Positions 4,121 through 34,697 of a stretch of 35,119 nt of DNA are shown in pieces. Source of the DNA: Bilabrum cf. latius (Eukaryota). The notes under the pieces were generated by a model. The model did no database searches and was not told the DNA's origin. It saw only the letters and a program-made list of their open reading frames with translations. The translations under genes were made by a program, and so were the position numbers. The stretch's first letter is position 1; every line of letters starts with the position of its first letter. The stretch is from positions 620,001 to 655,119 of the forward strand of contig OZ237769.1 in NCBI GenBank assembly GCA_965178125.1. Reading direction: 5' to 3'.

Positions 4121-4314
4121 TCTTTCAATTCAACCGCCAGTACCAGCGAGAGTAGTCACTATCAGTGAAAAGGCAAGTAGCAAATATCCGCGTATTGCGC
4201 TGACAACCTCAGTTTGGTGTTTGAAAAAGCTACACCGGAACTGTGAGGCAACGATGCCGAAACCTAGTGTTCCAAGTACTGAAGTGGTGATATGGTTTCA
4301 ATTAAATTGACATC

Positions 4315-5334
4315 ATGAGGAATACTCGTAGACTAGGTGCGGTATCGAAGCTGCTTGACGCCACCAGCCCACGGCGCGGAGTCTTATCTCGTAAGCATTG
4401 GGACTGGATGTGGAAGAGCGGTTTCATGGATTAGCAGCAGGCGATGCCCTCTGATCTCATCAGTACTGTCATTGAGCACTCTAAGCAGCACACGGGTTCC
4501 GGCGCCAGTAGGCTGGCCCTGGTCCCCATGTGCGGCACCTCCGCCGATGCTCTGCTGCTCGCCGAGGGTGGGATGGATGTGGTCGCCATCGAGGTTTCAG
4601 AGGAGGGGTGCGAGCGGGCCCGATCTAGCTGGTCCAAGCAATGGAAAGGAAGTAACTGGCAAGATCTCGGCGTGAGGATGGTCGACAAAGAGGCGCTGGA
4701 CGGTGGGCACGCCACCAGCACGGTGCACGCAGCTAGGCTGCAGGTAGCAGGGGCCGCCGACGATTCCGGTTCTATACTGCTGCTACAGGCAGACGTGTTT
4801 TAGGCTCTACCCCCTGCAGAATATGTCCAGGGGGGTGCTGGCGATATGCTCGCAGCACTGGCAGGCGGGCTTGGTTGCCTCTAGGGGCAAGCAGTGCACG
4901 GCGATGTACACGTGCACCTGCCCATGCCTCGTGCCTGCGCCTCTCTGGTGTGGGATCGAGGGGGTGTGACGAGTGTGGAGCCGTCGAGTCGCGAGGTGTA
5001 CCTGCGCACCTTGTTGGGGTGCCTGCAAGGGATACACCTGGGAGATGAACAAGATGGCAGCAGCTGTCCTGAGTTGGAGGGTGCTGCTGTCGGTGGTGCC
5101 CTGCTGGTGGAGGCGCTGCATCGGCCTGCCACTGGTGGGGGAGAGGACGGTGGGGATGGCTCCGAGTCGGAGGGTATGTCGGCAAGGAACTTGGTTGAGA
5201 TGGTGGAGAGCGCATCCCGATCGGTTGGACTGGATAGGGGTCGCTGGGAGACGGAGGTGCTGCTCGAGGGGGGCATGGAGGGGGTGCCAGGGGTGTCGCG
5301 GGCGCTAGTTAAGTGCTCGGTGAGGGCCGCCTGA
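4315..5334 (+). CDS. Thiopurine S-methyltransferase (TPMT)-like SAM-dependent methyltransferase, ~339 aa, 3 in-frame TAG
   Basis: One continuous frame if TAG is sense (4432, 4801, 4882): HWDWMWKSGF, ALVPMCGTSADALLLAEGGMDVVAIEVSE, QADVF, LVWDRGGVTSVEPSSREVY, matching TPMT-family motifs (VPLCGKS.D..LA..G..VVGVE.S; YDRAAL..LP...R..Y). TGA stop. Confidence 0.82.
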
Positions 5335-5520
5335 TCTCTGAGCGGTCAGTGTTGGTGCGACCCCCATGGACTCCAAACTTACAGACGGTAATTTGCGGGG
5401 CCAGGCAAGTCACAACAGAAACAATGGCCACAAACGCTGCAAAAACAAAAGTTGCTCGTCACACTGGCCACCGGAACGTCAGGTCCTTGGCCAGACGTTG
5501 ACATCTGGACATCATTTCCA

Positions 5521-9182: not shown

Positions 9183-9894
9183 ATGCCTGGAAAAAGTAAA
9201 GGTTAGTGTCATCTATTGAGTGTCCCTATTTTTTTGTAATTAAATTGCCGAAGATCACTCTAACCACGTGATTTGGAAATGGCCATTCTGTTTCGCAGCG
9301 AAAGGAGGCAAGAAGAACAAGAGCAAGAAGAAGGTGACCGATGAGAAGAAAGAGCTAGTACTTATTGACAAAGAGGATCCCGATTCGCAGGTGTATGCCA
9401 AGGTTGTGAAGGTGCTGGGTGGTCTGCGGTTCGAAGGGCTTTGCTTCGACAAGGAGCGCAAGACACGATTGTTGCACGTCAGGGGCAAGTTGAGAAAGCG
9501 CCAGTGGATCAACCAGGGAGACTTTGTGCTGGTATCCTTGCGGAGCTACCAGGATGACCGCGCAGACGTGATCCACACGTACCAGGCTGACGAAGCTCGC
9601 CAGCTCAAGAAGCTCGGCGAGCTCCCGGCGGATGCAGTGGTGGGCGACGTGGAGGAGAAGAAGGATGGCGGCGGAGACGACGATGGAAAGATCGACGACG
9701 TGCTAGTGTTCACCGATGTATCCACTGCAGGGGCTGCCAAGGGCGGCGCGGCTGCCAGCGGGGGAGCGGCCAAGGGTGGCTCTGGGAAGGGAGCAGCCAA
9801 GGCCGCGGCTCCTGCGGGGCCCTCCAAGACAGCCATCCTCAGCGCAGCAGCCGCCGGCGATGACGATGGGGACATGGAGCTGGACATGCTCTAA
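9183..9894 (+). CDS. EIF1A: Eukaryotic translation initiation factor 1A, ~204 aa, 2 exons (9183-9201, 9299-9894)
   Basis: MPGKSKAKGGK, a GTTAGT..CGCAG intron (9202-9298), then YAKVVKVLG..RFEGLCFD..RLLHVRGKLRKRQWINQGDFVLVSLRSYQDDRADVI..Y.ADEARQLK..GELP. Acidic end DMELDML followed by TAA. Confidence 0.95.
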
Positions 9895-10167: not shown

Positions 10168-11226
10168 TCACTGCCCCTTGCGCTCCTCCTCCGTCATCTT
10201 CTGAAAGACGCACAGCTCCGAGCACCCCCACTGGAACTTGCGGGCGTGCTCCCGAATGAGGAAGGGCTCGTCCCCGCTGTGCACGAGCGAGAAGCCCAGC
10301 TCCTTCATGCGGGCCTTGAGACCCTCGCTGGAGCCACCGTCTCCGCGGGCGGCGGCAGCGTCGTCACTGCGGCCCCCCAGCCACTTGTCCCTGGGAGTGT
10401 ACTGCTCCAGCCACGAGTAGGGCGAGATGAAGACCACCACGCCCTCGGGGGCCACCAGGCTCGGGAGGGCCCGCAGGAGGGCGTCCGGCTCGGGCAGGCG
10501 GCAGAGCAGGTTCGCGCCGTGCACCACGTGGAATGGGCCTCCTAGCTTGTCTGCGTCCAGGCTGCAGGCGTCGCCCTGCTCGAAGCGGATGCGGTCGGGC
10601 TTGGCGGCCTCAGGGCGGGTGGCCTTGCCAGACCGCCAGACCTCGGCTTCCTGCAGATACCGGAATGGGAGCTCCCCGGCGGTCTGGAGCTTCTTCGCGG
10701 CATTGATGAATGCGTGCGAAAAGTCAATGCCAACCACCTCGTCGAAAGCCTCGCTGAGCTTGAACGAGGTTGCGCCCACGGCGCACCCGAGATCCAAGGC
10801 ACGCGTCTTGGCTGGCTTGCGCCCAAAGTGGGCCAGACGGCTCTCGGACCAATCAATGCACACCTATGCAGTGCGGACAGGGAAGTTCAGCGCGTGCTTC
10901 GGTCCCATGCTGTACGGTAGGAACTCCTTATCGGAACCGTAGTGAAAGAAGAGGTACTCATTCACCGCACCATCAGTCTCGTACACGTTTCCGTCATGAT
11001 CCGAAGACGTGGTAGACAGCTACTACTTCTTAGTTGCCTTCTCCGCGTCAGCTTTGGAGCCGCAGCATGATGCCTTGGAAGAAGAGGGTGAAGATCCCTT
11101 CTATGCCCGCAGCAGCAGCCAGCTCACACCGGCGCCCAACACAGCTCCCGCACAGCTCGCTGCAACCACATGGGTTGTGTTGATATTGCCCAGAGACAAT
11201 TTGTTGGATGATGATGCAGCAGCCAT
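10168..11226 (-). CDS. SAM-dependent methyltransferase resembling the OvoA C-terminal (mercaptohistidine N-methyltransferase) domain, with an N-terminal hydrophobic anchor, ~352 aa, 4 in-frame TAG
   Basis: Continuous frame from ATG 11226: NVYETDGAVNEYLFFHYG...NFPVRTA*VC...RALDLGCAVGATSFKLS..FDEVVGIDFSHAFI..A...FEQGDAC.L...ANLLCRLP.P...SPYSWLEQYTPRDKWLGG...PFLIREHARKFQ. TAG at 11101, 11023, 11020 and 10864. TGA stop. Confidence 0.88.
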
Positions 11227-15164: not shown

Positions 15165-15352
15165 GACCACCACCTATGCACACGCTATTTGAACTTAAGC
15201 GTAACTATGCGCAGCCTGTAGTTTGCTGGGTTTCTAATGCATGCAGCATGGTGGTGTTGATGGCCGCACTGCACTCATCACTGCGCCACTGGCAGCAAGG
15301 ACACGGTGGGATCCGTGTGCCTCGCAGAGGTAGTAGGGCAGATAAAACCGGC

Positions 15353-16606
15353 ATGAGTAGTCTGCGAGCTATCATTGAGCAGCGCCGGGCCAAAGCCTCC
15401 GCGAGTTCAGCGCCAGCTGCCGTCTCAAAGCGATTCGTGCGGCGTGGAGAGCTGCGAGCCAAAGGGTCGACAGCCGGCGAGCGCCGGGGCCGCAGCGAGC
15501 AAGATTCGGAGAACCCCAGTTCAGAAGCAGAATCGCAGCCGCGTAAGAGGTCTCGAACGGAACCGAGCACCAATCAAGCATCGGCTGGTGCCAAGTCTGC
15601 AGCACCGGACATTCCAGGAGCATCGCAAGACAAAGATAGTTTCGACCGAGCTTGCAGCGTGCTCAGATCGCAAGGCATGCCGATTCGACTTTTTGGAGAG
15701 AGCGAATAGGACGTAGCACGCAGGGCCAGCCAGTACTCCCGCGGAGACGACGTGCTTGGCACCCGCTTAGGCCTCGAGCACCACCTCGGCGTGAGGCGAC
15801 GCACGGGGATGGAGGGCTTGCAGGAATACGGAGCACCTTCCATTCATGAGGCGGGGAAATCTGCTCCGCCCTCGCTCCCTGCTGGGAGTGCCTCGGCGGG
15901 TGCACCGGCGCCCTCCTCCTCCTCCTTCTCTTCGTCCTCGTCAATGCCGGCGAGCGCGACCCCGAGCCACTCCCTGTCCTCGTCCGCAGACCAGTTCTCG
16001 TTGGCCGGTGCCCAGTTCGTGCCCCCCCGGGACAGGGCAGAGGCTCTCTCCCGCATGGCCCGAGTGGCGGGCTACTTCCAGGGGCTCTTGCGGGGTTGGG
16101 AGAACGAGTGCGAGGCCAGGGAACAGGGGGTTGCTGGGGCACGCGAGGGCAAGGGGGGCACTGCGGCTGACCGCGCCGTGGGTACGAGCCAGAGGAAGAG
16201 GATCCAAGCTGAGCTACGCCGGTGCAGCGAGTACCTGCTTCCGCTGTGGGGGGCGTGCAGGGAGGGCACTCTGCCTCTGGACGTGCTGGGGCACCTGGAG
16301 GGCATGGCGGGGGCGCTGGCCAAGGGGAGTGTGACGAGGGCGCTGCAGCACCACGTGCAGTGGAGCGTGGGAGAGCAGGACTGGATCGTGGGTGTGACGA
16401 CGACGGGGATCCACGCCCGCGCGGGGCGCAACAAGCTGTTCGAGCAGGATGTGGCGCACGTGATGAACGACGAGAGGCAGAGGAAGATGGCCGTGGGGAT
16501 CAGGGCACTCATTGCCTTCGCGCAGAGGAGCGGAGAGGGCGTGTCCGCACGAAAAAGTGCCGAGGTGGGCTCCTCGGCCGGGAATGTGAAGAAGGGCTCT
16601 AGCTGA
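15353..16606 (+). CDS. PRPF18: Pre-mRNA splicing factor Prp18, ~417 aa, 1 in-frame TAG
   Basis: N-terminal KRFVRRGEL; splicing-factor motif LRSQGMPIRLFGESE*D (TAG at 15707); C-terminal SVGEQDWIVGVTTTGIHARAGRNKLF..DVAHVMNDERQRK matching the Prp18 motif IGNAPWPIGVTMVGIHAR..REKI...VAHVLNDETQRK. TGA stop. Confidence 0.92.
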
Positions 16607-16845
16607 TGCCGACGGCTGCGAGGACTAGGCCTATCCGCGGTCAGCATAAGAGTGGGGGTCAGTGCTCCCAGCTGTTTATGCATGGATTCTCGTCAGTGGT
16701 GGCCTCTGCTGATGGCATGCTGTGCATGCACTCTCGCACTGCACTGCCAGCTTGATCGACAGTGTGGACGAACGTCATCCACAAATCACATCGAATACAC
16801 GTCGAACAACAGATTGTTGACGCAAAGTTTGTAAATATTACTACA

Positions 16846-18249
16846 ATGGCAAGTGAAGCGGCCTAGAGACGGGCTGTACTCGCAAGACAAGCGGTTGCAC
16901 TGGGCTCAACGCAAGTGGCCGCAGAGTCGGAGCTTGCCGCTGCCGCAGAGGCAGATAGCTACAGAGTGCGAGTGGATGAAACAAAGAAAAGAGCTGTGAT
17001 GGAGGCACCAACCTACGACCAGTTTCATCAAAGGGTTCTGGCCACTGACCTCGTTCCATTGGCAGGCAAGCAGATTCAAGGCGAGCTGCTTGGAGGGCAG
17101 CGACCTGCTGGCTCTCAGGAAACGTCAGCTGGAGATACACAATTATCTGGTATTTCACCGGCTGACGGGGCATTTCTCTTGGATCTAACGCTGCCTAAAT
17201 CAGAGAGAGGCGGCGCATCAGGCAGTGGACTCAGGTCTTGGACGTAGCTTGCCGCAGCTTCTGCAGCGAACGATGCGGATCGTTTGCTTTCTGGCACATG
17301 GGCAGATGGAATGCCCCGACTGGGTAGGCGTCGTGGCGTGGCAGCTTCCCGCGATGCCCGCCGCCCGCCCGCTCCCGTGTACACGCCGTCCACTCACGAG
17401 CGGCTGTCCCTGTCGGCCATCGCGGCAGAGGCGCTGCGACCCTGCGGTGGTGTCTAGGGCGCTGTGGCAGCAGGTGGGGATAGTGGGGCGGCTGGGGAGG
17501 GCGTCGTGGCGGCCGCATCCAGTGTGACCAGTGCATCAGCAGCAGCTAGATCTACTCAGGGCCCTGGCACCAGTGCTGGCAAGAGCAAGAGTAAGGGGAA
17601 AGCCAAGGGGGGGAAGAAAGGGGCCTCTTCCCTCCCACGCACTCTGATGCAGCTGGAGAGGGACTGGAGAAGGGAGTCCCGGGCAGCAACAGGGCAAGGG
17701 CAAGGCTATGGGCTTGGTGCTCGGGATGGCAGAGTGACGCTCATGCGGGGGCTGGGGCCCAGGCGGCTGGCCCGCCTGACTGGCCTGGAGGTGGATGCCG
17801 GTCTGCTGGGTGACGTGCTGCAGCTGGCGGAGCGGTATGGTCCATCCCAGGGAACAGGGGAGCTTCATGCGGCTGGAGGGGCTGGCGAGATGCAGAAGAC
17901 GGACTCACGGGCTGAGGCCCAGGCCCAGACCCGCTGGGACAGGGAGGCCTTGGGGTGGGTGGAGGCAGTGATGGTGGACAGAACACCGAGGGAACAATCC
18001 AGGTTGCCGTGGGCTAAGGGATACGTGGCTCCGGGGGGAGACGGGGCGGGGGTAGCTGACCCCGGCGCTATGATAGGCACGGCTCGACAGCTGAGGATAT
18101 CCGGTCCTGCCCGGCTGGCGTGGACGCTGGTGCGAGCCGAGGCACGGGAGGCTTGCAAGGCGTTCTTGGGGCGGTGCGTGGGGTACGGAGCTGGCGCAGA
18201 AGATGTGAGTGCGAGGGCCAGGCAATTGCAGGAGGCTCTGCTTGGTTGA
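16846..18249 (+). CDS. CCDC103: CCDC103/DNAAF19-like axonemal dynein attachment factor, ~467 aa, 3 in-frame TAG
   Basis: N-terminal ESELAAAAEADSYRVRVDETKKRAVMEAPTYDQFHQRVLATDLVPL (dynein attachment factor N-domain) and RPAP3_C-like LPRTLMQLERDWRR...LMRGLGPRRLARL..LEVDAGLLGDVL. TAG at 16864, 17245 and 17455. TGA stop. Confidence 0.85.
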
Positions 18250-19493
18250 GCGCTGGCATCCAGATATATGTTCCATGTTGGCGGCCATATGTCGCACGTG
18301 TGAAGCTAAGACTACCAGAAATGTGCTATCTGTATCCTAGACGTCTATTTAGTTTTTCAACTGCGATCTCATATTTAGATATCCGATCTCATGTTTGAAA
18401 GTACACCTTACCCCTCAGAGTTGCTCGTGATGATCCGGATAGCGCAAACTAGTCTCCCAATCAATCAGACATGGCAAGTCCTTGACAAAGCTTTGCAGGA
18501 TGGCGCTGCTCTAGGCCTGTTTATCCAGGTCCGAGCTGAGCCACTGCACCACTCAGCCGAGGAGGAGGGGGAACTGGGAGGGTGGGAAAACGAGTTAACC
18601 CAAACTCCGTCCCTCTCCTGAACACAGAGAGAGCTGCAACACATAAATCCGGTGCGCGTCGATCACGGTTGCGACCGGCCCTATACCGTAACAAACGGGG
18701 AGACATGGCAACCTGCGCTCCCATTATCGCATCAAACCCGAACCCCATCCGGCGTAAGGTATAACAAATTATTCTGGTAGACTATTATTCTGGTATTCCA
18801 CAAAATATCAGATCCCCCCCTCACTTTTGGTCCCCGGAAAGGGGAGGGTCCTGAACACTGTGAACAGTCCGGGGGTCCGTAGACCAGGCCTGCCGACTCG
18901 TGCAGCGACCAAGATTCGCTCCGGCCAAATATCGTCCATTCCTACCGGGGATTTGGTAATTTGCAGCCAGTAGCGGTATAGGTGAGGCCAACTAGTGCCC
19001 CAAGTGCTGGTTCTGGCCCGATGTCTGCCTCTAGTTTTCGAGAGGCACCGAACCGCCCCTTCACATTGTACAAGCACATACTTTCGTAAGCTAAGCTACA
19101 GTTCAAAAATGGAAATTGTAGCCAGGTTTCGTCCCCTTGCTAAGGTAGCTACATGTACCCGTACCCATACTGACCAATACAGCTGAGTCCTGGCAGAGGG
19201 GACCCGCATGTCGTGCTTCCTACCTTTTTCATGCATTTTCTGCTCCTCTATCGCAGATAAATAGTCGACAATAGGTAGCTTTTTTTGTCAAACTCCATGA
19301 TTTTGCTGGTAAGTCAATCTGTAGCCCAACAATATTTTCCACAAACGACAAAACGTGTTTTCCACCCACTGCCAGTGGCAGCGTGGATGGCCCTCCGAGG
19401 AGTCCCTTCCCCGTCGCCAGAGCGGATTCAAAGAGCAGGTGCACTGGGGCTGGGATTAGGGGTGCGGGGCAAGTATGGTATCATAGCCGGGTC

Positions 19494-22400
19494 ATGCACT
19501 CCTATTTCTCCCGACTTTTATCAGCCAGTCTCCCCTCACAGCAGCCAGTCCTGCTCCTGCTGCAGTTCCTCTGGAGCATAGCCCAGCCAGCCCCGAATGA
19601 GGCCCGCCAGGTCATGCAGACTGACGCACTTGATCCAGATGGGATTAACCACCTTAACATGGGGCAACAGGGTAGCCATCGCGACCGAAGGCTCAACCTG
19701 GCAGATGATGGGTACGTAACTTTGAGCTCCGGGGCGAACGGGATGCCAGCCCTGCCCGCGAGCACAGCGTTCGGAACGTGCATCGCAAACCTGGGAAACC
19801 TCGACAACGATACAAACGGGCTTCCGGAGGTTTTTGTGGGAGCCAGAAAAGGTGCCAGTGCCAGCAACATCGGGACGAGCTTCATTGTGTCGCTCACAGC
19901 GACGGGCACGGTGGCTTGGACCAAAGAGGTCGGGTAGGCCAACCTGGCGGATGGGTCAGGTGAGCGGTTCGGGGAGGACTGCATCTCTCTAGGACGGATG
20001 ACGGTCGATTCAAATCGCACCACTGTGGCAATTACTACGCTGGAAAAATTCAGGTTATGGCTGATCAACCTGAGACCGAACGGTGAGGTGGCTAGCTACT
20101 AGGTCATCTCGACGACGACGGGACTTGAGCCTGGCGTGACCTTCAACCAGTAGATTCGAAGTGTAGCCGCCCCCGGTGATGTTGATGGAAACGGAGTGCA
20201 GGATCTGCTGGTCAACGAGTGGGACTTGGGAGGTTCCAACTACAGGACGTCTCTCCTTTTCCTAACCGTAAGGGGCACTGTTCGGGAGGTCTTCGAGCTC
20301 TCGATACCGAACGCTGATGACGGTAGATTTCGGACCTTGAGAGTAGCCCCCATGGACCCATGGACGTCTAGCAGCATCACCATAGCCACTTCAGATTACC
20401 GCGAGGGGTTCCCAAGGGGAGTTCGGATCTTCGAGATGGAAAGGAACTCAACCACGCCTGCCTTCACTCTGGTAGGATCCGTACTTACGACGTCGGACAA
20501 CTTCTGCTGCTCGACGCTGCTCTCGAGATCATTTGCATTTTTAGCAATATGGATACCAGAGTAAGACGTATATTGACAGCAGGGCCTGCTGTGGATGTAT
20601 AGCGGTTGCTCAATCACGTGATCCATTGCTACTGCTTTGACCCTGCCACGCTTCCCGCGCCTCCCCCCGCAGCCAAGACGCCGACTCCAACCCCGAGCTG
20701 GTGATCACAGACTTTAGATACAACAATGACAGAGGGAGGGCATACTTGGTGTACCTGAATGCCACCTACGGGATAAAGGGCATGGTGCCTTTTGGTCCGG
20801 GGCAGGATTACATGCAAGTATCATCCAGCCCTGCCAAGTATTTCGGCACGGCGGTCGACTTTATCGGCAATCTTGGTAATGGTGGCAAGCCAACACTCAT
20901 GGTAGGCAGCAATTATGGCTTAGCAGGGGCTTCTGGCCGAAAAGGCAATGCATGGGTCCAGACGATGCCCGAGGGGGTCGCCGTGGTCACCTCATCCCAC
21001 CGCATCGCAAGCAACTAGGGCGGCATTGGCTCGGTCTCGGGCAGCAAGTTCGGTACTGCCGTCTGTGCCATCGGAGACCTGAATCGGGACGGGATCAATG
21101 ACATGGCCATCGGGCAGGCCTCTGGTGCCTTGCCCACCAGAGGCAATGTGCGGATCGCCTTCATGGACGCTGACGGGACGGTGGGCTCTGTGCAGACCAT
21201 CTCCAGCACCAACGGCATGGGAAATAGTATAACACGTCAATTTGGAATCTACATGGCATTCCTCAATAGACAGACAGGGTCATCCTACGATACCCTAATA
21301 GTTTCAGATGACTTTGACAGCAACGATGGCTACGAGCGTGGGGCGCTGTGGATCCTGGAGCTAACGACGACAGGCTCTGTGCAGTCCAAGCAGCGCATCG
21401 GGGACAACGAAGGTCTCAATGGACAAGGAAGACTTGGTCTGTAGAGCCGTGACCATTTTGGCCGCTCAGTGGCCGTGGTGGGCGACATCGATTCCGATGG
21501 GCGAGTAGAGATCGCAGTTGGGGCCGAGCACTTAGTATCTGCCGGTTCGGGCACCTTGTTCATCATGTCACTCTTCCAGAATCACACGGTGGCCTAGTGG
21601 AGCAAAGTATCTGCCACAGAGGGGGGATACTAGCCATCACCCTTCGATACCAGGATGTACCAGAGCCTTGCAGCAATCGCAGACTTGGACCAAGACGGAG
21701 TGCCAGACGTAGCTACCGGCACCAACTTCGTATCTGACTGCGGAAGCAGATGCGGGGCCGTCATTGTCTTTTTCCTTCATTCGAACGGCACCGTCAAGGA
21801 CCAGCAGCGGATCTCACATAACACAGGCGGTCTTGGGTCTGTCCTTGCGGCGGGCGACAACTTCGGCCGCGGGCTCTACTCGCCCGGTGACTGGAACGGC
21901 GATGAGATTCCAGACCTGCTGGTGGGCAGCTACAAAGATCCTGACGGGGGCAGCGCGCGAGGTGCATTCTACCTTATGTACATGAATCGCGATGGCACGG
22001 TCAAGTCGTCGGTCAAGTTCTCAGACACCAAAGGGCAGCTGGATGTAGACATCAAAGCTGGAGACAACTTTGGCTACTCGTTCATGCTGCTGTCATCGAG
22101 CATAGGCAACAACCATAGGATTGCTGTGGGTCCATCTACTGACTCTGGCTACGTGGAGGTGATTGATATCTTCTCAGCCGCATCCCTGGCATCTCCATCT
22201 CCGTCGCCTACCCCATCTGTGACTCCCTCGACCTCCAGCAGTCCCACGCCAAGCATTACGTCTAGTGTCACCAGCAGTCCCAGCAGCTCGCCCACGCCGA
22301 GCATTACGTCTAGTGTCACACCGAGCCCTTCCAACAGCCCAACGCCCTCAAATAGCCCCACGCCCAGTGTAACGCCCAGTGTAACGCCGACCGCGACCCC

Positions 22401-25400
22401 GTCCATCACCCCAACTACGACACCCAGCACCACACCAGGACCCGTCGCCTCCACGGCCCTGTGGGCAGCAGCCAGCCAAGAAGCGTCGCTGCCTCACTCC
22501 AACGGCCCTGCTTTGGTGCTGCAGGGCACAGGGCCGCTGGTGCAGCTGGCGCGGGTGACGGGATACTCTGGCGCTGCGGTGGATCTACTGGCGGGCGTGG
22601 AGTTGCTGGTGGGACCGTACAGCTGTGTTGGGGTGCAGGCCATCCCGTCAGACACGTAGGGCAGTCAGCTGCGGTCAGATGAAGACTTCTCCATCAAGTG
22701 CCCCAGCCTGCCAGAGGGGGCAGGCGGGCCGCACCCGGTCACCCTCAAGCACGTGCTGGGCAGCATCGATGTGGTACAGGAGGAAGGCTCATCGACCCCG
22801 CTGTTGCTGTCGTATGACCCCCCCAGCATCGCGGACGTGACGCCTCGTGCCATAGAGCTGACGGCCATTGCCAACTTGACCTTTGCCATCACGGGGGAGG
22901 GTTTCGGGCCCACTCCTGGCATGCTGGACTCTGTGTGGGTGGGTGGTGAGAGGTGCTACCGGGCTACGTGGGTGTCTTCCACCGAGGTGCGATGCGACGC
23001 TGTGAGAGCCGATCGATTCAGCACCAATGGCGTGGTGGTGCGAGTGCTGGCCACTGCAGCCGGCGCCGAGCCTGGATACATGGCTAGCATCAACGGGGAG
23101 CAGCGCATCACTTACCCGGACCCGCCCCGCCCTGTGGGAGCCTCCCCACAGGACATCCCGTGTCTGGGCCGGTCTAACGTGACAATCTTCGGCATCAACA
23201 TCGGACTTGAATCTGGATCGAATGCCGTGGTGCGAGCCACGATCGGCTCCCAGCCTGCCCCTCGCTTCCTCCGCGAGACGGATTTCTCCCTGCAGATAGA
23301 CGTGCCCCCGGGGGTGGGTAGAGACCAGAAGGTGGGTGTGGTGACCGCATCAGGCATCCAGGGCCAGTCGCTTCAGGGCATCCTGCAGTACGAGCCGCCC
23401 GAAGTGCAGGGCATCAGCACCTCTCCCGCCACCGTGTACTCAGCCCTGGATGAGCCATACAACGTGACCATTAGGGGTAGGAACTTCGGCCCCAGGGAGG
23501 TGGTGGCCATCCGCACCGCCACGGTGGGCGGCAACCGGTGCCCCCAGGTGCTGTCCGTCTCGGACAGCGAAATTCTGTGCGTGGGGGTAGAGGCGCCGTG
23601 GTCGGACAATGCAGTGCTGGTGGACGTGCAGGGGCAGACGGGCTTTGATCTGTCAGTGTTCGAGTACTAGCCCCCCGCCGTGGTATCCGGGCTCCAGCCG
23701 GCGAATGGCCCCACAGTGGGAGGCACTGTGGTCACCATCACCGGTAACGGACTGGGGTAGGTGGCTACCATGGATGTCGAGGCCGTATTCATCGGTGACA
23801 GAAGATGCACAGACATTTCGATCCCGGCGGCTCACGTGGGGTAGTAGATCGTGTGCAAGACACCCAGGGGAACGGGGGAGGGCAACGAGGTACTGGTGGT
23901 CACAACACGCAATGGCAATAGCACGTTCCAGGGGGAGAGCCGGGTCTCGTTTGACTACGATACTCCCAGCGTCAATGGCATCAGGGCGTGCCAGGGGCAG
24001 TGCGGGTCAATCGCACTGCGCGGACAGCAATCTCCTTGGAGCTAGACGGTGATTTATGCGGGCAACTTGAGTGCGAGTGCAAGGGCCACCGTGGATAACG
24101 CGGGGAACCACGATGGCCTGCTGACGGGAGCCAGGCTGGTGCACGCCACGGGCGGGGCGGCGCAGTGGTCGGTGGACTGCAGCCAGGTAGCGACGGAGCG
24201 TGCTGGCTCAAGCGAGCAGGACCAGATCGAGGCCGTGCAGTGCCAGGTGCCCAGGGTGCCAACGACGGGCGTGGCCAATGGCGAGTCCGCCGAGATCACG
24301 CTGGAGTTTGCCGTCGACGGACAGACCAGCACGGCAACCGGGACTGTATCGGCGCTGACAGTCGTGGGCGCCCCTCGAGTCGACAGCATCCAGCCAGCGG
24401 ATGCGCCTGCCACGGGGGGGAACGCCGTCCATCAGCTGACAATCCAGGGAGCCTCCAGCGCAATTGCGGCCCGGCTTCACGCTTCCTTGCTACAGCAGAC
24501 ATCGAGCACCCAAGTCATCGCGCGTCCGACCTGGCTGCTCTAGGACGGGTCTGTCAATAAAACCGCCCTGTTGCTCGCTGATGCATCCGCAGTGGTGCCA
24601 ACGGCCTTCTTGTTGGCGCCGGGAGCACCCGAACTGGACGACTGGGCGGACCTAGGCCTTGCCCAGGTGCGCGGGGCAGAGCTGGGCAGGTCCGCAGTAG
24701 GGCTGCTGCGTGCTACCGTCGGAGGCCGCCCGTGCCCTCTGGTTGCGTGGAGCACTCAGGAGGAGCTCTTCGTGGCCGTGCCCCCGGGGGTAGGAGCTGC
24801 GGCCAAGGTGCTGGTCCTAACGGCAGGAGGCCTCTCGAATCAAGACCAGGCCACCCCTGTGACGGTGAGCTACTCACCCCCTCAGGTCTTAGGGGTGTCC
24901 CCTCTAGTCGCATTGATGCCCCCCGACTGGGATGCAGGGGCTTCGGTGGACGTGCAGGTAGAGCTGACAGGTCTGGACCACGTGGCTGGACGGTCCAGCT
25001 CCGGTCCAGCCGTCTCGATCCAGCTATCGGACAGCACTGCAGGTCTGAACGCAGAATGCATTGCGCTGCAGCGTCTGGCAGACCAGGCCACCGGAACGCA
25101 GCGACTTTCGTGCCAGTTGCCCCTGCAGCCCTTTGATCCCGACTTAGCCCCCCTCCGAGACCTGGCTGTGCAGGTGCAGGTGGCAGACCAGAGCGTCACC
25201 ACGCAGGTGGGAGTACTCACGCTCGTGGGGCGGCCGATCGTCACGGGAATTCAGCCCAATGTGGCCAGAACGGCGGGCGAGGGGAATGCCACGCAGGCGC
25301 CCGTGACGCTGGAGGGGCAAGGCTTCGGCACACTGCCTGGGCACGTCGGCGGGGTTAAGGTGGGCGGGGTGCCGTGCCCGTTGGTGCAGTGGGTCAGCTC

Positions 25401-28400
25401 TAGCAGGCTGCTGGTGGCGGTGCCTCCAGGTGTGGGAGGCGGAGTACCCGTGGTGGTGCAACTGCAGGCGGGCCTGACCTCCCAGCCGGGCCCCAACAGC
25501 GAGCTGTAGTACGAGCTGCCGGACGTCAGGGCCATCGAGCCCAGCTACCTGTTCCTGGCACCCGTCGAGGGCAACTTCACCGTGACGGGGCAGCACTTTG
25601 GGCACTCGCAGCAGAACTTAGACTACATTGAGGTGGGTGGCGTGCGGTGCCAGCGATCTGTGTGGGTGGATGGAGCCACGGTGAGGTGTGTCGGGCTGGA
25701 TGGCAGTCGGCTGGATCCGGCGTCGTTAGACAGCCGCCGGGTGCTGGTGCGCACATAGGGGCAGACCAGCATTGCCAACGCTCTATTCGAGCCGGTGCCT
25801 CCTCCAATCGTGCAGGAGGTGGCGCCGGCCCAGGCGGCCGCGGGCTCAAACGTTGTGATCCTTGGCCGTAACTTTGGCTACGTCGCATCCGACCTGCTGC
25901 GTGTCACGGTGGATGGCGTGCCGTGTGCCAGCTAGCAGTTCCGGTCCAGCTCCGTTGTGACCTGCCGACTGCCTGAGCCCAGGGCGTGGCGAGTGGAAGC
26001 GTCCAGCCAGGGCAACACCACGGTACTCGTTGGCCTGTCCGTGCGCGTGTCCACTCTCGGGGGTCAGCGGTCAGATTAGGCCACATCAGCCGTGGTATCG
26101 TATCCCAGCGTGGGCGCAGTGCTGCCCTACGTCCCTACTGAAGTCTTGGGCTGGAGGGAGCGAGGAAGGCCGGATACGCTGATCGTGAGATGGGTGTATC
26201 CCCGGGAGGAGTGGGCGCTGCAGGGCATGACGGAGCCCAGCGAGTACCACGTAGAGGTGTTCTCTGTGGCACAACCGGAGCTTGGAGGTAAGCAGTAGCG
26301 GTTCCGTGTGGCCGAGATCGAGAGTCGCAGGGAGGACGAAGACACGGTGGTCATGCGGCACACACTGCAGATCACCGAAGCGGGGCCCGTGCGCGTGCGA
26401 GTACGCGCAACTAGTTCTGCGGGCGATGCACCATGGTCGGAGTCGACCGGCGCCATCCCGCCCAGCTGCCTGGGGACCGAGTTTCTGGCCACCCATCTAG
26501 ACATAGGAAGGTGGACGTGCCTACCATGCGCTTCGGAAGCCAACCGATGCAGCGGAGGGCCAGCGCAGGTAGTGGAGCCGGCTACAGGGTACCAGCGCAT
26601 AGGATGGAGCGCCGGGCGACTGTCGTTTGCGGCATGTCCCAACCCCGACAGTTGCATCGTCGTTGAGGCCAACAACGGAAGTGGCCAAGCTGGAGGCATC
26701 GAAGGCACAGGACAGGCACGGAGGGTGCAAGGAGTCGCTGCTGATGATGACGGGATCCTCCGAGCAAACAGCCAGGTGGCTCCGGCTGGGTCTGCCCCTG
26801 GCTGGGTGCGGGAGGGACTGGTGGACGCCATCCGACAGGTGTGGCCCATGGGGAGCGACAGCCGAGGAGTTAGCCTGGCCCTCGCATCCAGCTCTGGGGC
26901 ATCAATCGACAAGCTGCTGGAGGAGGCCACGTTGGACGGAAGCTATGCCTCGTGCGCGGAAGGCTACAGCGGGACCATGTGCCAGAGATGCGTGCCGGGC
27001 TACACCCGCTGGGGGGTGCACGGCTGTGCCAAGTGCAGGACAGGCGCCGTGGTGGTCCTGGTCTTCATCGTCGTCTTTCTGCTGACCATCGCACTCGTGT
27101 CCTACCTCGTCATCAACGCCCTTCGCAAGAGCTCGCACCAGCTAATGATGCGGATCGAGAGGATAACCGCGGTCTAGGAGAAGAATCCTGATGATGATAC
27201 AATGGCATCAAGGGGCTTGGACATGTATGCAGCTGGGCAGCAAGGTAGTAGCAAACACGAGGGCCAGGGAGCACGGGAGGCTGCATGCAACCCCCCTGCC
27301 ACCCCGATATCCTCCTCCACCGCCCGGCTTAATGGAACAGAAGTGACGACAAGTCCGGCAGGCATGGCACAATCTATGCCTCCTGCAGACCCTGTGGGGC
27401 CCAAGTTCCGGGTTGCTATCCTCAAGATCATTTTTTCCCACGTTTAGATCGTGGCTATCGCTTCCAGCTTTGACCTGCGATGGCCTGCCTCCCTGATGGA
27501 GTACTTCAATACGCTCAACACTGCCACGTCGGTGGCCAGCGACGTCCTCAGCCTCGATTGCTTCCTGCAAGACGAGACGGTGTCACTCGGAATCGGGTTA
27601 GACGGTGGTGGCACCGGCAATGCAAGCGGCGTCTTGGCTGCATCCAGGGCCAGTAGCGGGGTCTCGGGGGCGACAGATCTGGGTGGCCCGTGGCCGCACA
27701 TTGACGAGGCCGGGGTGGCTGCCTTGACTGCCTCGCAGACCGAGCGCCACGCCTCTCTCATCTCCATGACCATGCCCGATGGAGGCCTGGCTGCCATCAT
27801 GCCCAGTGGGTCATCGTTCCTGGCCAAGTCAGTTGTGGTGCTGCTCTTGCCGCTCCTGCTGGTGGGGTTCGTCGCTCTATTTTGGCTGGCGCTCGAGGTG
27901 TCTGACGGGTGTCTCTTCGAGGAAGAACCCGATGGTGAATAGGAGGGGCAAACAGACAAGCCGGAACAATAGGCCCATATGACCAGCGAATCCCAGGCGA
28001 CTGTCACGGTATAGGGCCCCGCCTTTACGGTGCAGGTGCACACGGGCACGTCTCGCGCCGCCGCACCTGGCACCCCAACCCCCACGCAAGGCGCCCGCCT
28101 CGTCATCCAGGCTGCTACCGAGAGTGATGGCAGAGGCAGTTCCATGGACAAAACGATGCACACAGGCAAGCCTCAGCCCAGGATGAGCAGGCGACGTTCG
28201 TCCTTCGCTGGAGTAGTGCCGCTAGCGGGGGAGGCCAGGAGCGGTAGTCTGCTGACCAAGATGGGCGTGGATCTGAGCGTGGCTCGGGCGACGTACTGTG
28301 ACAAGCTGCTGGTGACCCTGGTGGTGCTAGCCTTTCTCATCCACCTCAATGTCACGCAGACCAGCCTGCAGATGCTCACGTGCCACGATATTAAGCCCTC

Positions 28401-29190
28401 GGTGGATCTGGACGGAGGGCTATAGGCTATCGCAGCCAACAGCACCGGTGCGCCACTTGAGGACCACGGGAACCTGACCGATGTTGCCTTGGGTCTGCCT
28501 CCAGGCTGTCCTGTCGACCATCCCAGTCGCCGGCTGTACCATGATCTAGACGTGTGCTGCCACGACCCCGCCGCTCTCGTAGTCATGTACGGGATCGGCA
28601 TCCCGGCCACCATGCTGTATGCCTTCGGCATCCCTATCTTCGCCGGTGTTTTGCTGTACCGTGCCAGGAACAAGCTGGACGACACCCGGGTGGTGGCCAC
28701 GCTGGGCTTCCTGCAAGAGGGATACAGGCGGGACCACTTTTACTGGGAGGTGGCCATCATGGCCCGGAAGCTCATCGTCGTCTGCATCGCCGTTTTTCTC
28801 GAACCGTGGGGGGCGGCTGTTCAGACATATGTGGCGATGACGAACGTATTTGTATTCGCAACGCTGCATGCATTTAACCAGCCGTTCAAAGACCGGGATT
28901 TAAATCTTCTGGAACTCCTCGCCCTAATGAGTGCCTTTCTGACGTTCGTGTGCGGGCTGTTCTTGTTCGACCCAGTGACTGGGGACGGTGTGCGGGTGCT
29001 GGCCACGATGGTGGTAGTGCTGCTGAACACGACCGTGATCGCTGTGGCTATAGGGGTGCTGCTCCTGCCATTTGCTGCACCCTACTTCCTTTCGTGGTGT
29101 GGTTGCGGGCGGCTCGATAGGGAGGGCTCGATCGCCAAGGCGAGGGTTGGTGGGACGGAACAGAGGCGCCTGCCGATCCGAGAAGATTGA
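19494..29190 (+). CDS. Giant cell-surface protein: signal-like N-terminus, FG-GAP (integrin-alpha-like) repeats, Ser/Thr/Pro stalk, many IPT/TIG domains, FN3-like and Cys-rich segments, multi-pass TM C-terminus; ~3,194 aa, 2 exons (19494-20560, 20673-29190), 25 in-frame TAG
   Basis: FG-GAP motifs (FGTAVCAIGDLNRDGINDMAIG, FGRSVAVVGDIDSDGRVEIAVGA, FGRGLYSPGDWNGDEIPDLLVG); IPT motifs (P.V..I.P......GG..VTITG.NFG); CAEGYSGTMCQRCVPGY; TM region with LGFLQEGYRRDHFYWE and PF....LNLLE. One phase-2 intron, GTAAGA...CGCAG (20561-20672). All other breaks are TAG; terminal TGA. The start codon is inferred. Confidence 0.88.
22189..22443 (+). repeat. Coding low-complexity mucin-like (SPTPS/TPSVT) repeat within the giant surface protein
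   Basis: ASPSPSPTPSVTPSTSSSPTPSITSSVTSSPSSSPTPSITSSVTPSPSNSPTPSNSPTPSVTPSVTPTATPSITPTTTPSTTPGP, with DNA-level duplication of agcattacgtctagtgtcac. Confidence 0.9.
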
Positions 29191-29880
29191 CACTCAGCTG
29201 CATCTACTTGACAATTGTGCTTCAAATTACATTTGCATTCAATTCGAAAGCGCCACATGCACCGCGGCAGCAACACGATAAGCGAGGCTCAACATATGCC
29301 TTTGGATGCTCTGCTCGCTCTAAGCTACCTCCACCATTACTAGCGCGACCGCTACCAGTGCAAGCCAGTCGGCCAACGAACTGATGCAGCTGCACAACTC
29401 TACGAGGCTGCGCAGTGCACACCACGGCACTCGGTTTCCAGCCCATGGTCATAGAGAGGTAGATGGGCTTCGAGACGGGAAGCGGTTCCTGATGCACATC
29501 ACCGTGGTGCGGAGTGCGGCGCTGCTAATCGTGGAGGATCAGGATCCTTGATTTAAGGTCACAGTACCATAATAAGGCGCCGCGAAAGTTAAAATCTTCT
29601 GTAGAAGCTGGTTCATGTACTTCGACATCAGGATTTAAGCGACGGGGAGCAGAGATGATACGTAAGTCGAGGCAGGCAAACTCGACGATCCCTGGTATGG
29701 CAGCGACAACAGAAAAACTCATTAGGAAAGTTGTATACTCCCATCCAATGGCAGACCACAACCAGCCCCATATTCGATGTGAAGCCAAGATGTTCAGCAA
29801 GACACTACTTTGGCCAACATTTCTTCGGTACTTGCTATCTATGATCTAGAAATGATCCACTACGCTATAACTCACATACC

Positions 29881-30570: not shown

Positions 30571-30961
30571 AGGGTTAGGGTTAGGGTTAGGGTTAGGGTT
30601 AGGGTTAGGGTTAGGGTTAGGGTTAGGGTTAGGGTTAGGGTTAGGGTTAGGGTTAGGGTTAGGGTTAGGGTTAGGGTTAGGGTTAGGGTTAGGGTTAGGG
30701 TTAGGGTTAGGGTTAGGGTTAGGGTTAGGGTTAGGGTTAGGGTTAGGGTTAGGGTTAGGGTTAGGGTTAGGGTTAGGGTTAGGGTTAGGGTTAGGGTTAG
30801 GGTTAGGGTTAGGGTTAGGGTTAGGGTTAGGGTTAGGGTTAGGGTTAGGGTTAGGGTTAGGGTTAGGGTTAGGGTTAGGGTTAGGGTTAGGGTTAGGGTT
30901 AGGGTTAGGGTTAGGGTTAGGGTTAGGGTTAGGGTTAGGGTTAGGGTTAGGGTTAGGGTTA
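30571..30961 (+). repeat. Telomeric (TTAGGG)n array 1, ~65 units
   Basis: Perfect TTAGGG tandem array, G-rich strand on +. Confidence 0.99.
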
Positions 30962-31585
30962 CAGTACCATCTCAGGGAAGGGTAAGGCGCCGCGAAAGTT
31001 GACATGTTCCGCAGAAGTTGACATGTTCCGCAAAGACGGCGGTGCCGCGCAGTGTCGAAGTGGTCGCAAGATCGCACTGAGGCGGATCTGGGCCAGTTGC
31101 AAGGATGCAAGCAGTCGGCAAGAGGTGCAAGTGATTGGCAATGCATATTTGGTGTATGATTATGTGTGTCTGCTTGGTTTGCAATGAATCTCGGCCGCGG
31201 TCTCCTCGGCAGTGCGGCCCGTGGGTGACGAGCACCCAGGGGGCTGCACGGGATGGACGCCCACCCGGCGAGTCTGGACCAAACCGCGTCGTGCAAATTG
31301 GGTTTGCCAAGGAGGTGTGCCCTGCTGTGTTTCGCCCGCGAGAATAGGGGGTTGTCTCCCCGTCGGGCAGGTGCTCCATCCAGCTCGCCCGTCCGTGACT
31401 GAGACAGCACGGGCCGCGACAAGTGCGCGAGCCCGGGGATCAAGTCAGCGGCCGATGGCAGCGAGCCGGCATGAAGCGCGTGCACGAGGAGCTTGCGCTC
31501 CCCATGCACTGCCTGCCCCACCTCATTGCGGATCTGGGACATCAGGTTCATCGTGTTGCCACACACACCTCCACACTCGACGATC

Positions 31586-32329
31586 TTAGGGTTAGGGTTA
31601 GGTTAGGGTTAGGGTTAGGGTTAGGGTTAGGGTTAGGGTTAGGGTTAGGGTTAGGGTTAGGGTTAGGGTTAGGGTTAGGGTTAGGGTTAGGGTTAGGGTT
31701 AGGGTTAGGGTTAGGGTTAGGGTTAGGGTTAGGGTTAGGGTTAGGGTTAGGGTTAGGGTTAGGGTTAGGGTTAGGGTTAGGGTTAGGGTTAGGGTTAGGG
31801 TTAGGGTTAGGGTTAGGGTTAGGGTTAGGGTTAGGGTTAGGGTTAGGGTTAGGGTTAGGGTTAGGGTTAGGGTTAGGGTTAGGGTTAGGGTTAGGGTTAG
31901 GGTTAGGGTTAGGGTTAGGGTTAGGGTTAGGGTTAGGGTTAGGGTTAGGGTTAGGGTTAGGGTTAGGGTTAGGGTTAGGGTTAGGGTTAGGGTTAGGGTT
32001 AGGGTTAGGGTTAGGGTTAGGGTTAGGGTTAGGGTTAGGGTTAGGGTTAGGGTTAGGGTTAGGGTTAGGGTTAGGGTTAGGGTTAGGGTTAGGGTTAGGG
32101 TTAGGGTTAGGGTTAGGGTTAGGGTTAGGGTTAGGGTTAGGGTTAGGGTTAGGGTTAGGGTTAGGGTTAGGGTTAGGGTTAGGGTTAGGGTTAGGGTTAG
32201 GGTTAGGGTTAGGGTTAGGGTTAGGGTTAGGGTTAGGGTTAGGGTTAGGGTTAGGGTTAGGGTTAGGGTTAGGGTTAGGGTTAGGGTTAGGGTTAGGGTT
32301 AGGGTTAGGGTTAGGGTTAGGGTTAGGGT
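31586..32329 (+). repeat. Telomeric (TTAGGG)n array 2, ~124 units
   Basis: TTAGGG array with one TTAGG variant near its start. Confidence 0.99.
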
Positions 32330-32389
32330 ATCTAATATAAAGTCAGGGACAGGGTCGGGGAAAAAATATTTTCATCTTCAATATTTGTC

Positions 32390-33007
32390 GAAAAACGACG
32401 TGCTACGATCTCGGCAACTACAGGTGATATGAAGACCGTTCAAACTGCATCGGGACGGCCTGGGGGCACAACATGGGCCAAATGTTCCCCAGGTTCCGTT
32501 CTGGCCGCGCGGCGCCGATATGGGTGTATGAAGAATTTCACACCGAAAAACGACGTGCTACGATCTCGGCAACTACAGGTGATATGAAGACCGTTCAAAC
32601 TGCATCGGGACGGCCTGGGGGCACAACATGGGCCAAATGTTCCCCAGGTTCCGTTCTGGCCGCGCGGCGCCGATATGGGTGTATGAAGAATTTCACACCG
32701 AAAAACGACGTGCTACGATCTCGGCAACTACAGGTGATATGAAGACCGTTCAAACTGCATCGGGACGGCCTGGGGGCACAACATGGGCCAAATGTTCCCC
32801 AGGTTCCGTTCTGGCCGCGCGGCGCCGATATGGGTGTATGAAGAATTTCACACCGAAAAACGACGTGCTACGATCTCGGCAACTACAGGTGATATGAAGA
32901 CCGTTCAAACTGCATCGGGACGGCCTGGGGGCAAAACATGGGCCAAATATTCCCCAGGTTCCGTTCTGGCCGCGCGGCGCCGATATGGGTGTATGAAGAA
33001 TTTCACA
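32390..33007. repeat. 155-bp satellite, 4 copies (starts 32390, 32545, 32700, 32855)
   Basis: Unit gaaaaacgacgtgctacgatc...gaagaatttcacacc. Copy 4 has two substitutions (gcaaaacatg, aaatattccc) and runs directly into telomeric repeat. Confidence 0.98.
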
Positions 33008-33738
33008 GGGTTTAGGGTTAGGGTTAGGGTTAGGGTTAGGGTTAGGGTTAGGGTTAGGGTTAGGGTTAGGGTTAGGGTTAGGGTTAGGGTTAGGGTTAGG
33101 GTTAGGGTTAGGGTTAGGGTTAGGGTTAGGGTTAGGGTTAGGGTTAGGGTTAGGGTTAGGGTTAGGGTTAGGGTTAGGGTTAGGGTTAGGGTTAGGGTTA
33201 GGGTTAGGGTTAGGGTTAGGGTTAGGGTTAGGGTTAGGGTTAGGGTTAGGGTTAGGGTTAGGGTTAGGGTTAGGGTTAGGGTTAGGGTTAGGGTTAGGGT
33301 TAGGGTTAGGGTTAGGGTTAGGGTTAGGGTTAGGGTTAGGGTTAGGGTTAGGGTTAGGGTTAGGGTTAGGGTTAGGGTTAGGGTTAGGGTTAGGGTTAGG
33401 GTTAGGGTTAGGGTTAGGGTTAGGGTTAGGGTTAGGGTTAGGGTTAGGGTTAGGGTTAGGGTTAGGGTTAGGGTTAGGGTTAGGGTTAGGGTTAGGGTTA
33501 GGGTTAGGGTTAGGGTTAGGGTTAGGGTTAGGGTTAGGGTTAGGGTTAGGGTTAGGGTTAGGGTTAGGGTTAGGGTTAGGGTTAGGGTTAGGGTTAGGGT
33601 TAGGGTTAGGGTTAGGGTTAGGGTTAGGGTTAGGGTTAGGGTTAGGGTTAGGGTTAGGGTTAGGGTTAGGGTTAGGGTTAGGGTTAGGGTTAGGGTTAGG
33701 GTTAGGGTTAGGGTTAGGGTTAGGGTTAGGGTTAGGGT
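33008..33738 (+). repeat. Telomeric (TTAGGG)n array 3, ~122 units
   Basis: TTAGGG array starting with a GGGTTTAGGG variant. Confidence 0.99.
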
Positions 33739-33798
33739 ATCTAATATAAAGTCAGGGACAGGGTCGGGGAAAAAATATTTTCATCTTCAATATTTGTC

Positions 33799-34416
33799 GA
33801 AAAACGACGTGCTACGATCTCGGCAACTACAGGTGATATGAAGACCGTTCAAACTGCATCGGGACGGCCTGGGGGCACAACATGGGCCAAATGTTCCCCA
33901 GGTTCCGTTCTGGCCGCGCGGCGCCGATATGGGTGTATGAAGAATTTCACACCGAAAAACGACGTGCTACGATCTCGGCAACTACAGGTGATATGAAGAC
34001 CGTTCAAACTGCATCGGGACGGCCTGGGGGCACAACATGGGCCAAATGTTCCCCAGGTTCCGTTCTGGCCGCGCGGCGCCGATATGGGTGTATGAAGAAT
34101 TTCACACCGAAAAACGACGTGCTACGATCTCGGCAACTACAGGTGATATGAAGACCGTTCAAACTGCATCGGGACGGCCTGGGGGCACAACATGGGCCAA
34201 ATGTTCCCCAGGTTCCGTTCTGGCCGCGCGGCGCCGATATGGGTGTATGAAGAATTTCACACCGAAAAACGACGTGCTACGATCTCGGCAACTACAGGTG
34301 ATATGAAGACCGTTCAAACTGCATCGGGACGGCCTGGGGGCAAAACATGGGCCAAATATTCCCCAGGTTCCGTTCTGGCCGCGCGGCGCCGATATGGGTG
34401 TATGAAGAATTTCACA
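33799..34416. repeat. 155-bp satellite, second block of 4 copies (starts 33799, 33954, 34109, 34264)
   Basis: Matches 32390-33007 at an offset of 1,409 bp, including the variant fourth copy and the preceding 60-bp leader. Confidence 0.98.
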
Positions 34417-34697
34417 GGGTTTAGGGTTAGGGTTAGGGTTAGGGTTAGGGTTAGGGTTAGGGTTAGGGTTAGGGTTAGGGTTAGGGTTAGGGTTAGGGTT
34501 AGGGTTAGGGTTAGGGTTAGGGTTAGGGTTAGGGTTAGGGTTAGGGTTAGGGTTAGGGTTAGGGTTAGGGTTAGGGTTAGGGTTAGGGTTAGGGTTAGGG
34601 TTAGGGTTAGGGTTAGGGTTAGGGTTAGGGTTAGGGTTAGGGTTAGGGTTAGGGTTAGGGTTAGGGTTAGGGTTAGGGTTAGGGTTAGGGTTAGGGT
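34417..34697 (+). repeat. Telomeric (TTAGGG)n array 4, ~47 units
   Basis: TTAGGG array starting with the same GGGTTTAGGG variant and followed by non-telomeric AT-rich sequence. Confidence 0.99.

Follow-up and report, generated by a model that had tools for sequence, protein, structure and literature searches.

Can a reading frame crossed by 25 TAG codons encode a single protein, and if so, which amino acid does TAG specify? The question is raised by a 35,119-nucleotide stretch of contig OZ237769.1 (assembly GCA_965178125.1, positions 620,001 to 655,119 of the forward strand), hereafter the window, which is eukaryotic, has a GC content of ∼60% and carries the gene of a giant surface protein of 3,182 residues, whose frame is crossed by 25 TAG and, short of the TGA that ends it at 29190, by neither TAA nor TGA. 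Once TAG is read as a sense codon, 12 genes are found in the window. We place a probability of about 0.92 on NCBI translation table 15, in which TAG stands for glutamine throughout the genome and translation ends at TGA (mostly) or TAA, in what is probably a heterotrophic stramenopile. In keeping with table 15, in-frame UAG is widespread in the genes and stands at conserved Gln columns.

TAG as a sense codon

TAG occurs 44 times in the 7,914 codons of the 12 genes and is present in eight of them, while the genes end in 11 TGA and one TAA (that of eIF1A, 9892–9894, + strand), neither of which occurs in frame. In three genes TAG lies inside a domain whose continuation is fixed by homology: a mitochondrial-type dihydroorotate dehydrogenase (DHODH; TAG at 2734–2736, − strand, 86 codons before the TGA, in a variable column with Q in human), the Ariadne domain of an ARIH E3 ligase (7276–7278, + strand) and an OvoA-type methyltransferase (10864–10866, − strand, one of four in-frame TAG, in a variable column). 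TAG is a sense codon here and TAA has not been reassigned. From the CAA:CAG ratio ∼8 in-frame TAA would be expected in the window versus none observed (P ∼4e-4; ∼1e-20 in the metagenomic relatives described below), and eIF1A and the relative locus L005 both end in TAA, a small sample for its role as a stop. If TAG is Gln, the Gln codons of the window are 258 CAG, 50 CAA and 44 TAG, giving TAG 12.5% of 352.

The giant gene, on the + strand throughout, has its first coding exon, with the ATG, at 19297–19308, placed by a splice joint in an X5 contig and by translation. A 233-nt GT..AG intron (19309–19541), skipped in X5, separates it from coding exon 2 (19542–20560), which holds three in-frame TAG (19935, 20100 and 20151); judged by eye, the two exons encode a hydrophobic, signal-peptide-like N-terminus. 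A second GT..AG intron of 112 nt (20561–20672) is skipped in X5 and X6 and present in X7, and coding exon 3 (20673–29190; 2,838 codons) contains 22 in-frame TAG, with neither a TAA nor a TGA ahead of the final one. X5 and X6 come from the same study and X7 from another; X5 and X6 are labelled as RNA by guess only, and we take them to be RNA from their splice joints, no listed run being on record as such. The spliced X5 contig of 9,503 nt covers 19541–20560 and 20673–29102 with no other letters and no gaps and keeps all 25 TAG, and the unspliced DNA of X7 carries identical TAGs, 15 of the 25 being covered by the listed X7 pieces.

These contigs bear on two explanations in which TAG would have no sense meaning of its own. 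If U-to-C editing or tiny introns removed TAG from the mRNA, the code could be standard, and TAG can indeed serve as a 3′ splice site, as on our reading it probably does in the kinase of the relative locus L003. However, the X5 sequence shows neither other letters nor gaps over 19541–29102 save the 112-nt intron, which excludes micro-introns and, given that contigs lose rare variants, majority editing only, and we regard this explanation as extremely unlikely. We see almost no room either for the TAGs being nonsense mutations, in a subtelomeric pseudogene or by C-to-T hypermutation, or sequencing errors. The giant gene does lie ∼1.4 kb from telomeric arrays, and CAG to TAG is a transition, but the same TAGs recur in spliced contigs and in another study's unspliced DNA, the giant frame contains no frameshift, TAA or TGA, and TAG is also found in housekeeping genes and in other species. 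By mutational opportunity from codon usage, all 44 codons being TAG has P ∼1e-10, a figure that, like the zero count of TAA and TGA, is partly circular since the frames are bounded by TAA and TGA.

TAG could also have a dual meaning, read as Gln inside genes but as a stop close to the ends of transcripts, or be suppressed leakily with mixed residues. In ARIH, one TAG falls in a low-complexity tail, 8 codons ahead of the TGA, and a few TAG columns are rich in Trp or Val, both of which would fit such a scheme. Nevertheless, none of the 12 genes needs TAG as a terminator, 25 successive read-throughs in one protein would need near-complete efficiency, and the base 3′ of TAG (G 21, C 9, A 8, T 6) is similar to that after CAG and shows no special context, so that a dual meaning appears improbable.

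Internal repeats of the giant protein

The initial annotation of the window had held that internal repeats of the giant protein identify TAG as Gln without any external database. The peptides and positions on which it relied are exact, both for the quoted TAGs (20100, 25507, 25756 and 27445, with the in-frame series running from 19935 to 28423–28425) and for the comparison peptides at 21172, 21370, 21784, 23377 and 23614, and the FG-GAP and TIG/IPT repeats are real by Pfam. The quoted repeats do carry Q opposite TAG, but the choice of them was selective. With the 12 FG-GAP blades and 11 IPT-region segments of the protein aligned in MAFFT without selection, Q was found in 3 of 10 other blades at the FG-GAP TAG (20100–20102), in 1 of 8 segments at the TAG before an IPT junction (25507–25509) and in 2 of 10 own repeats, or 3 of 36 in a wider set, at the TAG in an IPT strand (25756–25758), all on the + strand; at 21595, a TAG that had not been quoted, S stands in 5 of 10 and Q in none. 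Repeats were compared in pieces, whole-protein self-comparison having given the diagonal only.

Pooled over the own-repeat TAG columns, Q makes up 9 of 105 residues against a background of 4.6%, with 18 S and 12 T, and the own-repeat likelihood, which scored 12 of the 18 columns, ranks S, T and Q in that order. The headline of the annotation therefore does not hold, and the check that it had itself proposed, a tabulation of TAG columns in an unbiased alignment, nominally refutes it in that non-Gln residues dominate, but the test is underpowered either way. When residues of known identity were masked in the same repeats, the true one came first in 1 of 8 trials for Gln, 0 of 8 for Glu, 0 of 8 for Tyr and 2 of 8 for Leu, and we dropped internal repeats as a codon identifier for this lack of power. 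An aliphatic residue always came back for masked Leu, and Phe in most cases for masked Trp; since TAG behaves otherwise, the repeats suggest a polar residue and nothing finer. Gln is supported over Leu, Tyr and Trp as had been claimed, but not by the repeats: the assignment rests on external homologues and related organisms.

External homologues

The decisive TAG (27445–27447, + strand) lies in a conserved KIxxxxxQ helix (helix 8–28 of our structure model, pLDDT ∼94) within the multi-pass membrane domain of the giant protein. The initial annotation had recognized this motif, which is external knowledge and not an internal repeat, and the motif is borne out. We searched 1.84 billion representatives with the membrane domain and used the best 150 of 4,533 matches, in which Q fills the column in 111 of 118 aligned stretches and E, L, K, Y or W in none.

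In a masked-codon test against homologues, Q ranked first for TAG both in the window (10 columns) and in the metagenomic relatives (30 columns), and the controls recovered the true residue in 8 of 9 classes for the window and in 9 of 9 for the relatives. Scores could be given to 10 of 25 TAG in the window and to 30 of 92 in the relatives, columns with fewer than three residues being left unscored, and L003, L006, L008, seven locus-matching proteins and P0291 were dropped as near-duplicates before columns were counted. With 42 columns pooled, Q leads the runner-up by 19–22 log units across three pseudocount settings. The window alone makes a moderate case for Gln that leans on one column. The TAG column of the methyltransferase is uninformative (E 4, N 3, A 2, Q 2 and others, with 6 gaps), and for PRP18 and the transportin-like protein solved structures gave no alignment over their TAG.

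Database proteins of close relatives provide a further view of the same codon. At an identity of at least 40%, 7 of 8 distinct mid-domain ends fall just before a window Gln, where Gln makes up 2.5–4% of residues, and one such end precedes a Gln of DHODH that 116 of 120 homologues share. In the truncated proteins for which DNA was available the ending codon is TAG in 4 of 4 cases. Three less similar membrane-domain ends and two ARIH ends do not lie before a window Gln.

Two observations on these proteins concern the organisms that they come from. P0293, the 96% identical DHODH, indicates that a very close congener is present in public sequencing assemblies. The DHODH (P0294) and ARIH (P0125) fragments of a relative both lie on 5,807-nt contigs, and their cluster mates on contigs of 5,407 nt, hinting at a conserved DHODH–ARIH gene order (compare 2476–8025 of the window).

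Metagenomic relatives

A metagenome scan returned 59 loci. L002–L008 and L010 have 53–59% GC and long frames with 7–37 TAG each and no TAA, and their membrane domains are ∼36–43% identical to that of the window, while L001, L009, L011, L013 and L015 have 63–73% GC and frames of 478–3,646 codons under the standard code. Five non-redundant paralogues (L002, L004, L005, L007 and L010) together hold 92 TAG and no TAA in 11,127 codons, alongside 144 CAA and 222 CAG, so that TAG would be 92 of 458 (20%) Gln codons if it means Gln. TAG stands at the near-invariant Q of a V.QTY motif in L005 and L010 (Q 127–131 in those columns), at the end of a seven-Q run in L005 and opposite a Q of yeast Pol eta in a flanking gene of L006. 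With these conserved Gln columns, the case for Gln becomes strong, beyond the moderate one that the window makes by itself.

A fast tree built on the membrane domain joins the window to the TAG-bearing L002, L004 and L007 (97) and L005 (88), beside standard-code sequences, with L010 as a separate paralogue. The simplest reading of this topology would be a single origin of the TAG change before the species split, within the limits that paralogy sets.

Elsewhere in the scan, L030 and L052 have both TAA and TAG in frame, L030 with a TAA at a conserved Gln column, and these probably are other organisms that use table 6. In L010, inverted fragments resembling the neighbouring giant gene lie directly upstream of it (1002–1803, − strand), which suggests a local duplication.

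Points against glutamine

In addition to the guessed nature of the RNA and the partial circularity of the frame counts, several results weigh against the assignment of TAG to Gln. The one miss among the window controls was that of its own CAA/CAG codons, for which Q ranked second, and without column 27445 the window has a near tie of Q, A and E (0.1, 0.0 and −2.7), with A first at the lowest pseudocount. The TAG column of ARIH is mostly Glu (E 88, Q 12 and D 9 of 120), and G stands opposite TAG in a 73% identical ARIH, as does D in the 96% identical DHODH. The column of the TAG at 25933 is hydrophobic (V 23, L 7, I 7), and two TAG of L005 fall in Trp-rich columns. A suppressor tRNA is absent from the window and from the 16 loci scanned (L001–L016), tRNA searches of both having returned none.

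The acidic residues in ARIH and DHODH, together with the S and T ranked first by the protein's own repeats, could be taken to mean that TAG is sense but specifies glutamate, as it does in the ciliate PL0344, or a different polar residue. However, a single step leads from GAG to TAG, and Glu-to-Gln substitutions could thus account for the E-rich columns. Against glutamate in particular, there is no E among the 118 residues at column 27445, E trails Q by ∼19–24 log units over the 42 columns, and the TAGs of the relatives stand at conserved Gln sites. We therefore consider it very unlikely that TAG means anything but Gln among the polar residues.

Proposed mechanism

As set out in the accessible part of PMC5304391, UAG can be read without UAA by a CUA anticodon only, which a single change separates from tRNA-Gln(CUG), and the affinity of eRF1 for UAG has to be lost. 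We propose that the same holds here, such that a CUA-bearing tRNA-Gln, a single mutation away from tRNA-Gln(CUG), would read UAG but not UAA, while recognition of UAG by eRF1 would be lost or weakened. Since Gln usage is dominated by CAG (258 versus 50 CAA), a spare CUG tRNA would be a plausible source. Neither the CUA tRNA nor eRF1 is encoded in the window or in the 16 scanned loci. The change would predate the split from the metagenomic relative at ∼40% protein identity, with related GC-rich organisms keeping the standard code.

Lineage of the source organism

Stramenopiles account for nearly all of the named ARIH matches, which comprise oomycetes, Platysulcus, ochrophytes, one labyrinthulid and one protein labelled Paulinella. 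A quick ARIH tree (70 rows, rooted at the midpoint and lacking a proper outgroup) places the window on a long branch within a clade of 13 otherwise nameless rows, and the DHODH clusters (92) with a sequence annotated as Symbiodinium sp. KB8. The KB8 assembly may contain Cafeteria-like contamination; the accessible part of PMC10120064 states only that this assembly has mavirus-like genes. No named bicosoecid appeared among the homologue matches. The source organism is probably a stramenopile and possibly a bicosoecid. On balance we favour a picture in which TAG, and no other stop codon, was given over to Gln throughout a clade of free-living heterotrophic stramenopiles, plausibly bicosoecids that form the sister group of Cafeteria-like flagellates with the standard code.

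The giant protein and other features of the window

From its N-terminal side, the giant protein (+ strand) comprises ∼12 FG-GAP blades of an integrin-alpha-like propeller (19767–22185, residues 80–848; Pfam PF01839 and PF13517 and repeat alignment) with 7 TAG, a Ser/Pro/Thr-rich stalk (22189–22446), an array of IPT/TIG domains with 11 TAG (22519–26100; PF01833, E 5e-42), a cysteine-rich segment and the membrane domain (27049–29091). The last is weakly similar to the TRP family PF06011 (fungal FLC/Pkd2-like), which is matched by 34 of 61 members of the giant protein's family at E ≤0.01, but the giant protein scores 19.9 bits, below the Pfam cut-off of 28.5. The structure model of the membrane domain has a pTM of 0.72 and a pLDDT of 75.5; Foldseek found no match for it at E ≤0.001 and the best Z in fold searches was 7.2, although the absence of a solved-fold match for a model does not show that the fold is new. 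The membrane-domain family counts 4,533 representatives at E ≤0.001, and the full-length homologue search with the C-terminal region gave one protein. Within a large family of protist surface proteins, the giant gene is an unremarkable member. The architecture of FG-GAP, IPT and membrane domains is Cafeteria-like; judging from its domains, the protein probably has a role in adhesion or sensing.

The 5′ untranslated region of the giant gene has a 275-nt GT..AG intron (18982–19256) that one X5 contig skips and another retains. Further upstream is a multi-copy element (18438–18864) with divergent copies at high depth in runs X5–X8; no second copy was found within the window and Rfam gave no match to it. 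Some contigs skip 18423–18863, which suggests an insertion absent from related sites. Downstream, a eukaryotic chromosome end is marked by four TTAGGG arrays interleaved with a pair of identical blocks, each made of four 155-nt repeats (30571–34697, + strand), and then come ∼400 nt of AT-rich DNA. The layout could reflect a genuine subtelomere or a duplication introduced in assembly. A motif common to 29553–29610 and 30953–31020, ∼1.4 kb apart, whose second copy adjoins a telomeric array, resembles the end of a telomere-inserting element.

Apart from the giant gene, the window encodes VPS26-like, AhpC-like, TPMT-like and HIG1-like proteins, DHODH, ARIH, eIF1A, the OvoA-type methyltransferase, a transportin-like protein (our own reading, with no Pfam match), PRP18 and a dynein-attachment factor. 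The DHODH is of the mitochondrial, quinone type. The source is probably an aerobic protist and the window its nuclear DNA. The OvoA-type (ovothiol) N-methyltransferase (10168–11226, − strand) is stand-alone, has a hydrophobic N-terminal segment and is 34–44% identical to bacterial proteins. A single X5 contig spans PRP18 and the dynein-attachment gene (15269–18293), reflecting either overlapping transcripts or DNA. An Rfam search of the window gave no match, and the viral sequence collection searched held no relative.

Relation to known codes and significance

In nuclear genomes UAA and UAG nearly always change meaning together, and a handful of lineages uncouple them. Table 6, in which TAA and TAG both mean Gln, is used by Tetrahymena, Paramecium, some ulvophytes and Streblomastix; TAG is Gln there as here, whereas TAA is not reassigned in the window or its relatives, where no in-frame TAA stands against 44 and 92 TAG, respectively. 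Other codes that uncouple UAG from UAA assign it a different amino acid, namely Leu in rhizarian exLh and TARA ciliates, Ser in Scotinosphaera and Glu in PL0344, with UAA as Lys in the last.

Table 15 itself is reported for Iotanema and for the ciliates Hartmannula sinica, Trochilia petrani and Protocruzia tuzeti (accessible parts of PMC11687900 and PMC10553269), and it is listed for crAss-like phages (PMC9523058). The table 15 ciliates share with the window UAG as a minority Gln codon and UAA and UGA as stops, with UAG forming 18.5% and 31.8% of their Gln codons versus 12.5% in the window and 20% in the relatives, and occurring in ∼80% of their genes versus 8 of 12 here, according to the accessible data. 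In contrast, the window is not ciliate by its ARIH and DHODH neighbours, has 60% GC and uses TGA for 11 of 12 stops, where UGA is 8–13% of stops in those ciliates. The fornicate Iotanema spirale (accessible part of PMC5304391) has UAG as Gln, UAA as stop and the same predicted tRNA-Gln(CUA) and eRF1 change, but it is a metamonad with UAA as its dominant stop, unlike the window with its quinone-type mitochondrial DHODH, HIG1-like gene and stramenopile-dominated best matches.

Two possible relatives, Cafeteria burkhardae with a GC of ∼70% (PMC6972860) and Halocafeteria seosinensis with 46.8% and the telomere repeat TAACCCT (10.64898/2026.06.25.734631), both differ in GC from the window with its ∼60%, the latter also in telomere unit from its TTAGGG, and the accessible parts of these two reports mention no nuclear recoding. 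Our literature search, with most subscription papers and supplements outside its scope, found no nuclear stop reassignment for stramenopiles; a 2024 stramenopile review has recoding terms solely in its reference list, and none were found in the accessible text of PMC6492006.

TAG as Gln in this window is a real and well-supported new instance of a rare known code. If the favoured lineage is right, it would be the first nuclear stop-codon reassignment found for stramenopiles, in a GC-rich genome with TGA and not TAA as its main stop. The accessible accounts of the published UAG = Gln cases do not identify the suppressor tRNA. Here the long contigs, RNA and several sequenced species would make both that tRNA and the eRF1 change directly readable, and how giant viruses and virophages of these hosts are affected would become testable. 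Judging from database fragments that end before Gln columns, automated annotation of this clade is truncated throughout, hiding its proteome from searches and phylogenomics. A further independent origin, in a GC-rich and TGA-terminating lineage with close standard-code relatives, would offer a comparative test of how UAG is captured.

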